From Gammaproteobacteria bacterium (GTDB lineage Bacteria; Pseudomonadota; Gammaproteobacteria; SURF-13), in assembly GCA_016195665.1 (NCBI GenBank), contig JACPZD010000024.1, positions 23,997 to 87,996 on the forward strand: 64,000 nucleotides of DNA. The letters are read 5' to 3'. Numbering within the stretch: the first letter of the stretch is position 1; the number at the start of each line of letters is the position of its first letter. The notes under the pieces are model-generated. The model worked only from the letters and a program-made list of their open reading frames with translations. It did no database searches and was not told where the DNA came from. Below are positions 49,312-51,613 of the stretch, piece by piece. A program made the translations under genes and the position numbers.

Positions 49312-49427
49312 CGCCATAAATCTACTGCGCGTCTTTGATGCGGGTGCGTGCGGTGCTCGGAATCCTCATGTACTTCTATGTACACTCCGGTTCCTGCGCT
49401 CCGCCGCCCCCGCCTGAAACCCGCTCG

Positions 49428-49841
49428 CTACGATTTCTGTCGCCCAGATTTGACGCCCTCCGCGGACTCGTCCGCCTTGCTCATCAACAGATCAAAATTA
49501 CGATACGCGTATTTTGGATCGGCACCGACGTTTTCAATGCCCTCGGACGTTAGATCCGCGCCATAGTTAAATGCTCGAAAATACAATTGGGAATGATCCT
49601 TGGCGGATACCAGGCGCGCGCTCACCCTCACCCACGGCTTATAGTCGAATGAGTTTGCGGTAGAGAGGTAACCGACGGCGACATACCACACGTCCAGTAT
49701 TGCGTCGGCATCGGTTCGGATGGCTGAATAGTCAGCCTGATTTTCATTTTTTATCGCCGGCCGCTGGTCGGAAAGATAAACGATCTCGTAATTCTGCTTC
49801 TTTAACTCACGCTGTAGCGCTTGGGCAATTTCGGCGCCCAT
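49428..49841 (-). CDS. hypothetical protein (137 aa, no signal peptide; possibly a gene remnant) in the low-GC islet
   Basis: Only ORF in this stretch with plausible codon usage; a stop codon lies immediately upstream of the ATG. Confidence 0.35.
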   Translation of the reverse strand: MGAEIAQALQRELKKQNYEIVYLSDQRPAIKNENQADYSAIRTDADAILDVWYVAVGYLSTANSFDYKPWVRVSARLVSAKDHSQLYFRAFNYGADLTSEGIENVGADPKYAYRNFDLLMSKADESAEGVKSGRQKS

Positions 49842-50212
49842 TAGTTAGACTGAGTATTCACGTTTCTCTCCTATGGAAACTCTGAAAATTCCATCCGTCG
49901 AATTTTCACGCGAATAGCACAGACAGTGAAGATGCACATCGTCTGACTCCTCGAACAATTCTTCTCACCGTCGTGCTACTAAGCTAGACTTAACCCCTTA
50001 TCCCGCTTTTTACAATCGGCAACGCATCCATCAGTCTCTGGGTTTCAAGAGTCCTGCGAGCTACGAGGCGATGGCGGCTTAACTACGTGTCCGTGAAACC
50101 GGGGGTAGCTCAATCTTATCTATTCCGAAACGACGGTCCTGCCAAATATGGCGGTGCACGACCTGACGCCGCTGTTCTGCCGTCGCAGAGACACTACAAG
50201 ACCCTGGCTTAT

Positions 50213-50572
50213 TCAAACTAGCACAATTTGAGACCGCATACTGTAGAGTACAAATAAGACTTCTTCTTGCTCTCGTTGACCGATATTGTTCTTCTTCAAA
50301 GCAGCTAAAGCATCATCCAAGACCGACATAAACTCCGCGGCAGAAATATTCATTCCTTTATGAGCCGCTAACATATCCTTTCCCTTGTAAACGTCGGGGC
50401 CACCTGTTCCTGAGATAAAAAATGTAGCGGCTGCGTTCTTGATTTTAGGGATGTCGCTGTTAGAAAATCTTGTGGCAATCAATTTATTTGCCAGATGATT
50501 GTCAACTACGTCATTCGCTATGTTGGTAATCCCTTCGATACCGCCCAGTCTTTCAAAAAGTGATTCGCTCAT
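50213..50572 (-). CDS. group I truncated haemoglobin (2/2 Hb, trHbN-like), cytoplasmic
   Basis: 119 aa; LFERLGG...F....GGP..Y.G..M...H.GM.I....F pattern of trHb group I; local GC about 42 percent versus about 63 percent genome-wide. Confidence 0.8.
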   Translation of the reverse strand: MSESLFERLGGIEGITNIANDVVDNHLANKLIATRFSNSDIPKIKNAAATFFISGTGGPDVYKGKDMLAAHKGMNISAAEFMSVLDDALAALKKNNIGQREQEEVLFVLYSMRSQIVLV

Positions 50573-50727
50573 GATAGTTCTCCTAAGTTAAAAAACATTT
50601 ACTTATAAAAACCTTCTTGGTGATTGAAGCATTTATAAACTACCATTAAGCATAGAGATACAGAAGTACAATATCTGTAGTGTTCAAATCGACACCAAGT
50701 TACTGAATTAACTGAGGAGTGTACAAA

Positions 50728-51435
50728 ATGAATTCTTATGGCCAGTTCTGTCCTTTGGCGCAAGCAACCCAATTGTTATGCGAGCGCTGGACATTGATCG
50801 TTGTGCGTGAATTAATTGCGGGAAGTACGCGTTTCAATGAGATAAAAAGGGGCGTGCCCAAGATGTCACCGTCATTACTGTCTGCGCGACTTAAACAGTT
50901 GATAGAGGCGGGCGTGATAGAACAATGCGGGAGCAAGGGGAAATACACATACCGCCTGACTCCCGCCGGGTTAGAGTTGCGCCCGATTGTAGAACTGTTT
51001 GGCGCATGGGGTCACCGTTGGGCTCGCTCCAATTTGAACAAAATAGATTTGGATGCTGGTTTATTGATGTGGGATATGCGTCGAACCGTCGATCCGGCAA
51101 TTTTTCCAAACTATCGCATCGTTGTGCAGTTTGAATATCCAGACGCACCAAAAGGGGGTCGCGTTTGGTGGTTGGTATCTGAAAATGGTGAAATAGACTT
51201 ATGCTTGAGTGATCCTGGTTACGATGTTGATATTGTTATAAAATGCTCCCTGAAAACGATGGCTGAGATTTGGACCTGCCAGCTGCGCTTTAATGATGCA
51301 GTGAGAAAAAATGACATTCATGTAATGGGTGACTCAAAGCTTACTAGCAAGCTTCAAGATTGGCTGCGTTCAAGTTCACTGTCTAAGCTCGGCTCTCTCG
51401 ATGAATTACCTGAATTAAAATGGGGAATTGGCTGA
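50728..51435 (+). CDS. HxlR-family winged-helix regulator with C-terminal extension of about 120 aa
   Basis: MNSYGQFCPLAQATQLLCERWTLIVVREL... is the HxlR-type HTH signature; divergent from the trHb gene; low GC. Confidence 0.8.
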   Translation: MNSYGQFCPLAQATQLLCERWTLIVVRELIAGSTRFNEIKRGVPKMSPSLLSARLKQLIEAGVIEQCGSKGKYTYRLTPAGLELRPIVELFGAWGHRWARSNLNKIDLDAGLLMWDMRRTVDPAIFPNYRIVVQFEYPDAPKGGRVWWLVSENGEIDLCLSDPGYDVDIVIKCSLKTMAEIWTCQLRFNDAVRKNDIHVMGDSKLTSKLQDWLRSSSLSKLGSLDELPELKWGIG

Positions 51436-51613
51436 GTTTCCCGATAAGTTCTCGGCATAAGATGATCGAATAACGCTAACGGGGTCATAACGTAGCGTAA
51501 CGGGATCAGGCTTGTATAATTGCATTATTAGGAAAGGTGTGCATCCCCTTATTTCTTCATCCGCTTTATCTCTGACTGTCCATAACATCCAAAATCCCTG
51601 CTGTTGCGTATAG

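Follow-up and report, generated by a model that had tools for sequence, protein, structure and literature searches.

A divergent gene pair in a low-GC islet

The window considered here is a 64-kb stretch of gammaproteobacterial DNA, and our subject is an islet of low guanine-plus-cytosine (GC) content at positions 49312–51613. At its core two genes diverge from a shared control region of ~155 bp: one for a truncated hemoglobin of 119 amino acids (50213..50572, minus strand) and one for a two-domain regulator of the HxlR/DUF24 family (hxlR; 50728..51435, plus strand). The linkage of the two in hundreds of proteobacterial species marks them as a two-gene unit. Below, we describe the two proteins, their linkage, the predicted control region and the history of the islet, before considering how the pair might work; loci from other genomes are given handles (L001 and so on) where they have to be told apart.

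The truncated hemoglobin

The globin matches Pfam Bac_globin (PF01152; E 3.6e-10, 40.5 bits against a cutoff of 21) and is cytoplasmic, since it has no signal peptide. Its closest solved relative is SbHbN of Shewanella benthica (7TT9, 8UGZ and others; E 5e-30, ~50% identity), which is far ahead, as a match, of the classical group N globins of Paramecium, Tetrahymena, Mycobacterium and cyanobacteria. These two matches bear out an earlier reading made from the sequence only (hereafter the sequence-only reading), in which the product had been called a cytoplasmic group I truncated hemoglobin. SbHbN, a member of subgroup 2 of group N (TrHbN-2), reacts with peroxide and shows no reversible O2 binding; the subgroup has received little study, and what most truncated hemoglobins are for is elusive (PMC11904497). 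In the SbHbN paper (PMC11904497) we saw neither a regulator nor an operon mentioned.

Mapped through SbHbN, the window globin has Val at B10, His at B13, Phe at CD1, Ile at E7, Ala at both E10 and E11, His at F8 and Val at G8. The TrHbN-2 signature, in which hydrophobic residues at B10, E7, E11 and G8 replace Tyr/Gln/Gln (PMC11904497), is present here as Val, Ile, Ala and Val. The 61 homologues that are linked to the regulator and at least 60% identical all have Val or Ile at B10 and Ala at E11, and 59 of them have His at B13, a residue that departs from the hydrophobic consensus of the subgroup at that position; within the globin family His F8 is invariant, and conservation extends to the Gly-Gly hinge motifs RLGG and GTGGP. 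From these residues the globin is assigned to group N (group I), subgroup 2, with a predicted apolar distal pocket and a His at B13. SbHbN shares the subgroup, the hydrophobic B10, E7, E11 and G8, the proximal His F8 and the His at B13. It differs in having Phe at B10 (Val or Ile in the window clade), Met at E10 (Ala in the window clade), Val at E11 (invariant Ala in the window clade) and, at CD1, the Tyr that drives its peroxide chemistry, where the window clade has Phe.

About 1000 close homologues of the globin were found. A more distant regulator-linked set, mostly from Woeseiaceae (L041, L050, L053, L060, L063–L065, L072 and L079 amongst them), has globins 36–40% identical to that of the window, and in all 11 loci of the set E10 is His. 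With His at B13 as well as at E10, these globins may represent a bis-His hexacoordinate variant of the module.

The regulator

The regulator has 235 residues; its true start is the ATG at 50728, preceded by GGAG, rather than position 50719, because its homologues are also of 235 residues and begin MNSYGQFCP. An HxlR/DUF24 winged helix spans residues ~7–100 (Pfam HxlR, PF01638; E about 6.5e-19, 68 bits against a cutoff of 20.8) and is followed by a C-terminal extension of ~130 residues, in which an SCP2-like domain is recognized at residues ~125–215. The family and the long extension had both been proposed in the sequence-only reading, and agree with these domain assignments. The single domain of ~105–130 residues that is the norm for DUF24 regulators is exceeded here. 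Sequence and profile searches of the PDB returned no solved structure of the two-domain architecture: the sequence matches (YodB, PA1607, PA1374, HypR/YybR, QsrR and HxlR) are confined to the N-terminal domain, and the profile matches to the C-terminal part are weak and, with the exception of one periplasmic-binding/LacI-type chain, almost all to SCP2. All 23 aligned family members match Pfam SCP2 (PF02036; best E 2.2e-6) and 12 of the 23 match Alkyl_sulf_C. A low-confidence AlphaFold2 model, compared by Foldseek, resembled SCP2 proteins (probability 1.00; TM up to 0.74, for SCP2-like-2), UbiJ-SCP2 and alkylsulfatase C-terminal domains of the SdsA1 type. Domains of this fold are known as carriers or as substrate-recruiting modules of enzymes, in contrast to the predicted fusion with a DUF24 winged helix-turn-helix. 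In the paper library searched, nothing relevant connects HxlR with truncated hemoglobin, globin or SCP2.

Three cysteines (Cys8, Cys18 and Cys159) are invariant in all 74 orthologues (60–95% identity), and Cys184 is found in 72. Cys8 aligns with the cysteine of the YodB MCPK motif and with Cys14 of HypR, and thus occupies the conserved DUF24 sensing position at the N-terminus of helix alpha1, the cysteine of which is the sensor in YodB, HypR, QsrR and HxlR alike; in HypR, Cys14 is the redox sensor and is conserved across the DUF24 family (PMC3351151). In Bacillus subtilis HxlR the equivalent residue, Cys11, is paired with Lys13, and the two form a methylene bridge that traps formaldehyde (PMC7835342). 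The window family has C8-P9-L10, with P9 and L10 invariant, in place of this Cys-x-Lys arrangement and, because the lysine is absent, the classical formaldehyde mechanism does not apply.

Three characterized systems are instructive for comparison. HypR (YybR) of B. subtilis, a MarR/DUF24 protein (PDB 4A5M/4A5N; PMC3351151), is of the same winged helix-turn-helix family and has its sensing cysteine at the start of helix alpha1. It is a single domain of ~130 residues, however, its partner Cys49 has no counterpart in the window regulator, and it targets a nitroreductase rather than a globin and responds to hypochlorite or diamide. YodB and QsrR (PDB 5HS7, 4HQE) are quinone- and diamide-sensing DUF24 repressors; YodB gives the best profile match to the N-terminal domain (E 1e-11) and its ‘CP’ motif aligns exactly, although both proteins are single-domain repressors of quinone and azo reductases in Firmicutes and lack an SCP2 domain. 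B. subtilis HxlR itself (PDB 7BZD/7BZG; PMC7835342) is of the same Pfam family and is a formaldehyde-activated activator of a divergently placed operon; its targets are enzymes of the ribulose monophosphate pathway, not a globin, and it lacks the extra domain.

Linkage of the globin and the regulator

The divergent pairing noted in the sequence-only reading recurs in many other genomes. A scan of one genome per species found the regulator encoded in 304 species. Of the 81 loci fetched, 74 have a globin homologue in divergent orientation 100–770 bp upstream of the regulator gene. Three of the seven exceptions merely lack upstream sequence, such that the proportion is 74 of the 78 loci with enough upstream DNA. 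When open reading frames (ORFs) within ~7 kb were clustered, the globin and the regulator were the only recurring neighbours (75 and 74 loci); the next real gene cluster occurs in no more than five loci, and clusters of 9–20 loci proved to be reading frames that overlap the two genes on the opposite strand. The carriers include Gallionellaceae, Sulfuricaulis, Thiobacillaceae, Thiotrichaceae, Thiomicrorhabdus, Sedimenticola, Woeseiaceae, Marinobacter, Marinobacterium, Polaromonas, Colwellia and Zhongshania. Viewed from the side of the globin, the regulator stands beside 39 of the 58 evaluable metagenomic loci with a close homologue, and the palindrome described below is present in 38 of these 39. 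The link is near-obligate for the regulator; for the globin it is frequent but not obligate.

Two variations may be mentioned here. In L118 the regulator has been lost and a remnant of the palindrome (TAGTACAGATTCTGCACT) is kept upstream of the globin, and in L104 and L106 a gene that is transposase-like, as judged by its translated sequence alone, occupies the position of hxlR.

The control region

The probable operator is a palindrome of 7-3-7 form at 50665..50681 (AGTACAATATCTGTAGT in the window; consensus ACTACAGAATCTGTAGT). The ACTACAGAATCTGTAGT block is the most conserved part of the intergenic alignment (45 loci). An exact 15-nt pattern, GTACANWWTCTGTAG, is found in 46 of the 81 loci, with few exceptions as a single copy preceding hxlR, and in most of them it lies ~40–90 nt before the hxlR start. 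With up to five mismatches allowed, the palindrome is present in 74 of 75 pair-bearing intergenic regions, at median distances of 46 nt from the ATG of hxlR and 90 nt from that of the globin. Its 13-nt core, TACANWWTCTGTA, has a single exact match in the 64 kb, at the operator itself. Allowing one mismatch adds a site at 52904–52916 (TCCAAAATCTGTA), half-operator-like and upstream of the gene for a lipoprotein globin; this was set aside as a probable chance match, 6 of 100 shuffles yielding two or more.

A second conserved feature appears to belong to the globin promoter. In 58 of 74 loci the plus strand carries the pattern A...TA.CA, always 28 nt leftward of the palindrome; read on the globin strand it is TGnTAnnnT, and its conserved positions are exactly those of an extended −10 element. 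In the window the predicted element is TGgTAGTTT at 50637..50645 (minus strand), an assignment based on conservation. TTGAAG, TAGCAT and TACAAT were considered as plus-strand promoter elements of hxlR and discarded for their impossible spacings, such that no promoter could be assigned to hxlR.

The arrangement recalls that of HypR, the box of which is a 7-2-7 repeat upstream of the activated target, and is found again at +24 to +39 of the regulator's own promoter (PMC3351151): in both cases the operator, known or predicted, is a short inverted repeat, 7-2-7 in the one and 7-3-7 in the other, which precedes the promoter of the target gene and lies close to or within the leader of the regulator. 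The conserved linkage and the conserved predicted operator together make it probable that the regulator controls the divergent globin gene, as the sequence-only reading had supposed.

That reading had, however, sought the operator elsewhere, in a direct repeat at 51477..51508 (plus strand). The repeat is real: its copies, TAACGGGGTCA (51477–51487) and TAACGGGATCA (51498–51508), lie 21 bp apart and are the sole two matches in the window. It begins 42 bp past the hxlR stop codon and lies ~155–185 bp upstream of the start (51662) of a gene for an extracytoplasmic function (ECF) sigma factor. Nucleotide homology with other genera ends, according to the locus, at 51374–51466, short of the repeat. 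The repeat is conserved in L084, a close relative, and in another, L001, homology ends after the first copy (GGGGTCATAA) and IS3-family sequence takes over. As an operator of the regulator the repeat is untenable, being downstream of hxlR, outside the conserved DNA and deprived of its second copy by IS3 sequence in L001; if it is functional, it more likely belongs to the ECF unit than to HxlR.

An extra exact site of the operator pattern was observed in L033 (Marinobacterium profundum), at 15227–15241, right where a RarD/EamA-like transporter gene begins, at a distance of 6.5 kb from the pair. A similar transporter is found near the pair in five loci, and the gene in L033 may be a second member of the regulon.

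Composition and history of the islet

The compositional anomaly claimed in the sequence-only reading is real. Of all 2.3-kb windows in the 64 kb, 49312–51613 has the lowest GC (0.467, or 46.7%), the remainder having a mean of 0.602 and a standard deviation of 0.0225 (z = −6.0); the 64 kb as a whole is at 59.6%, not the ~63% that had been given for the genome. By segment, GC is 0.517 in a lipoprotein gene fragment, 0.499 in an insertion sequence (IS) remnant, 0.419 in the globin, 0.310 in the intergenic region, 0.465 in hxlR and 0.433 in 51436–51613. At third codon positions (GC3) the globin and hxlR stand at 0.425 and 0.466, i.e. 0.43–0.47, against 0.69–0.85 in neighbouring genes (gspD, gspC, those for the ECF sigma, anti-sigma and lipoprotein globin, a hydrolase gene and ruvC). 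The deficit of the two genes therefore falls at synonymous sites. An assembly artefact or chimera is ruled out because the same junctions are repeated in independent assemblies (L082, 99.9% identity; L084–L087, ~95%).

Between the type II secretion genes and tol-pal, L084 keeps the gene order of the window, with identities of 96.1% in the globin, 98.7% in the intergenic region and 98.3% in hxlR, compared to 94–98% in most flanking genes. In L001, also a ~95% relative, the pair (93.6% and 96.3%) stands upstream of the same hydrolase-yebC-ruvCAB genes, the left flank is different and the operon for the ECF sigma, the anti-sigma and the lipoprotein globin is missing save for an 80-bp remnant. All the close relatives found (L082, L084–L087 and L001) have the islet at this site and with this composition. 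Given this shared site and an identity like or above that of the flanks, it must predate the split of the ~95%-identity lineages. L083, which had been taken as a relative without the pair, was set aside on alignment, its contig beginning inside hxlR. Of the horizontal acquisition proposed in the sequence-only reading, the foreign composition stands; a recent gain does not, being ruled out by the presence of the islet in all the ~95% relatives found, the very observation that the reading had named as telling against it.

Beyond the species cluster, similarity across orders reaches 83% amino acid identity for the regulator and 91% for the globin, and loci of Gallionellaceae, Sulfuricaulis and Nitrosomonadales retain 74–80% nucleotide identity, intergenic DNA included, in non-syntenic contexts. 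Of 63 genomes, 55 have a pair lower in GC than its flanks (mean difference −4.2 points; Wilcoxon p 4e-9). Amongst the eight hosts of the clade most closely related to the window, the pair averages 46% GC and the flanks 57%; it is at 42–47% in all but one host (range 42–55%), with host flanks at 52–60%. There are also low-GC hosts in which the pair matches its surroundings, L024, L036 (Thiomicrorhabdus) and L049 amongst them, and these are plausible donor-type lineages. The GC3 gap, the non-syntenic identity, the GC of the pair relative to its flanks, the low-GC hosts and the IS3 and pseudogene debris described next make an older transfer the best reading. A compositional islet can thus be foreign and yet fixed in a whole species cluster, which is a caution for genome scans.

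Debris beside the pair

Traces of mobility at the border of the islet comprise a transposase remnant, a terminal inverted repeat and a truncated gene. The last of these (ORF137; 49428..49841, minus strand) had been taken for an orphan of 137 residues in the sequence-only reading; it is instead a 5'-truncated fragment of a lipoprotein gene. A phmmer search of 1.84 billion representatives gave 397 matches, all on the C-terminal ~135 residues of proteins of ~240 residues, the complete members of which start with lipoprotein signal peptides. By tblastn with the full-length family, residues 94–228 alone are present in the window, the signal peptide and lipobox having gone. Pfam and NCBIfam searches gave no match for the fragment or its family.

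At 49960..50082 (plus strand) lie the last ~40 codons, stop included, of an IS3-family transposase gene (translation ...FYNRQRIHQSLGFKSPASYEAMAA*). In tblastn (E limit 1e-2) this segment finds annotated IS3-family transposases in 249 plasmid records, with E from 3e-4 to 4e-3 among the matches listed, and its product matches the C-terminus of Pfam rve_2 (E 5.6e-4). It is followed at 50087..50112 (minus strand) by a 26-nt IS3-family terminal inverted repeat, TGAGCTACCCCCGGTTTCACGGACAC, the outer end of which faces the 3' end of the globin gene; 23 of its 26 bases are those of the left end of the IS3-family element abutting hxlR in L001 (10764–10789, just upstream of its orfA). The debris is eroding, as L084 has lost the segment 49615–50020 and keeps only 49444–49614 of the ORF137 fragment.

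IS3 ends thus flank the pair in two sibling lineages, on the left in the window and L084 and on the right in L001. A composite transposon, with two copies flanking a cargo, was considered and rejected: each genome has one IS3 remnant, the same terminal repeat lies on opposite sides in the window and L001, and none of the genomes carries the two together. The islet showed no integrase, tRNA or flanking direct repeats.

L001 also carries a second, partial copy of window 50108–50480 (the 3' part of the globin gene and DNA downstream of it), the segments concerned being 8002–8374 and 8459–9322. A UbiE-type methyltransferase gene lies between the two L001 copies of this DNA, and both copies begin at the position that the IS3 end occupies in the window. 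At 49368–49441 (plus strand), in the GC-rich spacer right after an HGSNAT-like gene, there is a match to Rfam sX9 (RF02228; 48.3 bits, gathering threshold 44). Part of it recurs as an inverted copy at 54224–54244, and the match therefore looks more like an intergenic repeat of the repetitive extragenic palindromic (REP) type than a dedicated small RNA.

A possible mode of action

We consider it probable that the core of the islet is a self-contained sensor–effector unit, in which a TrHbN-2 globin and its divergent HxlR/DUF24-SCP2 regulator, an old acquisition, are regulated through the palindrome. In this scheme a dimer of the regulator would bind 50665–50681. If transcription of the globin starts ~7 nt downstream of the −10 element, the site would span −35 to −51 and be centred near −43; the predicted promoter has no −35 hexamer, and the geometry resembles that of activator sites. 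Binding would switch globin transcription and probably also autoregulate hxlR, the ATG of which is ~46 nt from the site. The position of the site and the lack of a −35 hexamer favour a regulator that activates the globin, as HypR and HxlR activate their targets, and represses its own gene; repression of the globin is also possible. As the trigger we envisage an oxidant or electrophile that reacts with thiols; it would act on Cys8, for which Cys18 or Cys159 could be the partner, and perhaps be joined by a hydrophobic ligand held in the SCP2 domain. The globin, with its apolar pocket and His B13, would act on a small reactive ligand such as peroxide, nitric oxide (NO), O2 or sulfide. In this genome vertical inheritance of the pair would go back to a time before the ~95%-identity relatives split.

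Several observations weigh against this scheme. A generic scan for sigma-70 promoters and terminators found nothing in the intergenic region, and the operator and globin promoter are predicted from conservation alone; binding, the transcript and induction are likewise modelled on conservation and family likeness. The SCP2 score of the window regulator itself, 20.1 bits, is just below the cutoff of 21.3, and the AlphaFold2 model, built from 23 close homologues, is poor (pLDDT 56), such that it serves as support only, through Foldseek. About one-third of the close globin homologues on metagenome contigs are without the regulator, which implies that the globin can function in its absence. In four loci the regulator faces another gene, either SCO4226-like (L004 and L014) or for an S-adenosylmethionine methyltransferase (L017 and L048). 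Finally, the lower GC of the pair relative to its flanks in most hosts could in part be an intrinsic bias rather than the mark of repeated transfer.

These points bear on three other explanations. The metagenomic globins without a regulator, the four loci with another divergent gene and the extra operator-like site at the transporter gene of L033 would all be expected if the two genes had merely travelled together, the regulator controlling itself or other genes and the globin being constitutive or controlled elsewhere. We regard this as unlikely, since 58 of 74 loci have the palindrome in fixed phase with the extended −10 on the globin strand, the linkage seen from the regulator is 95% across orders and no other neighbour is conserved. 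The four exceptions can themselves be read in the opposite sense: the palindrome is kept in all of them (exact in L004 and L014, with one or two mismatches in L017 and L048), and because the replacement genes take the same divergent position behind the same control region, it is the divergent gene that would be the target, and these loci look like target swapping. (The SCO4226-like gene lies at ~3530–3856 in L004 and ~4676–5002 in L014; PF14026, E 6.5e-29.)

Transfer itself might be disputed, with the pair seen as an ancestral proteobacterial unit made AT-rich by selection or local mutational bias. Its presence at one site in all close relatives would fit, as would the way its GC tracks that of the host (r 0.79, slope 0.70) and falls below the flanks in most hosts, whatever their lineage. 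Against this, the deficit is concentrated at third codon positions, the pair stays at 42–47% in seven of the eight hosts of the closest clade across flanks of 52–60%, orders share 74–80% nucleotide identity, intergenic DNA included, without synteny, IS3 ends lie beside the pair in two sibling lineages, and no neighbour is conserved; an ancestral unit seems improbable to us. The picture given in the sequence-only reading, of a recent islet with a classical aldehyde- or formaldehyde-sensing HxlR protein acting through the repeat at 51475–51515, is in our view very unlikely. It had in its favour the HxlR Pfam domain with a conserved N-terminal cysteine, a repeat that is real and unique in the window, and the foreign composition. 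However, the repeat is downstream of the hxlR stop codon and outside the DNA common to other genera, with IS3 sequence at its second copy in L001, and the true intergenic region holds a far better conserved palindrome; C8-P9-L10 replaces Cys-x-Lys, and the islet is in all the ~95% relatives found. The older sensor–effector unit regulated through the palindrome is the explanation that we prefer.

A DUF24 thiol-switch regulator beside its target is of a familiar kind; the fusion to SCP2, the globin as target and the operator appear undescribed. The fusion would extend the DUF24 thiol-switch family with a putative input for hydrophobic ligands, and it is tempting, although distinctly speculative, to see in HxlR-SCP2 a new class of one-component sensor, the SCP2 domain delivering a hydrophobic signal (a quinone, a lipid hydroperoxide or another membrane-derived electrophile) to the DUF24 thiol switch, and TrHbN-2 being the dedicated enzyme that removes the signal or its cause. 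Were this so, TrHbN-2 would perform, for example, peroxidase- or NO-dioxygenase-like chemistry on hydrophobic substrates, and the pair would circulate as a mobile stress cassette amongst sulfur- and iron-oxidizing and marine bacteria such as Gallionella, Sulfuricaulis, Sedimenticola and Marinobacter. Cultured carriers, which include Marinobacter nitratireducens AK21, Marinobacterium rhizophilum DSM 18822, Marinobacterium profundum PAMC 27536 and Polaromonas sp. SM01, have the dedicated regulator together with its predicted operator, and the inducer of the promoter would be a strong clue to the function of TrHbN-2.

The downstream ECF and lipoprotein globin unit

To the right of the islet, on the plus strand, lie genes for an ECF sigma factor (51662–52210), an RskA-type anti-sigma factor (52207–52896), both recognized by Pfam and NCBIfam, and a lipoprotein TrHbN (52989–53432) with a Bac_globin match, a lipoprotein signal peptide and the lipobox LAGC. 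A perfect 16-nt terminator-like hairpin (53456–53488, plus strand) ends the unit. The unit (51662..53488) has host-like GC, with GC3 of 0.70–0.80, and its genes are also called in L082. The lipoprotein globin is 40% identical to the cytoplasmic TrHbN-2, and 7987 homologues of it were scored. The trio recurs in an unrelated context, a betaproteobacterial metagenome-assembled genome (L088/L089), and is absent around lipoprotein globin homologues in L090 and L092 (Cupriavidus and one other contig). That the cell has two globins under different kinds of regulator, as suggested in the sequence-only reading, is reasonable and borne out in part: the second globin does lie beside an ECF/RskA pair. An exported heme globin under envelope-stress-type control would be unusual, and could be a finding of its own. 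An AACGG-type motif, vaguely similar to the direct repeat at 51477..51508, precedes both the ECF gene and the lipoprotein globin gene, in the window and in L088; it was considered as an ECF promoter element and set aside as too short to evaluate.

Other features of the window

Clusters of a hairpin repeat (TGTTGAAAAAAGGCCATCCATGGCCTTTTTTCAAC) lie at 36281–36444 and 26511–26666, and clusters of the same type are found in L084 (5489–5649) and in the unrelated genomes of L003 (11950–12076) and L015 (1642–1801); they look like REP elements or miniature inverted-repeat transposable elements. The window also has tandem glycine riboswitch aptamers at 22577–22768 (minus strand) and a tRNA-Phe gene at 29920–29995 (plus strand).

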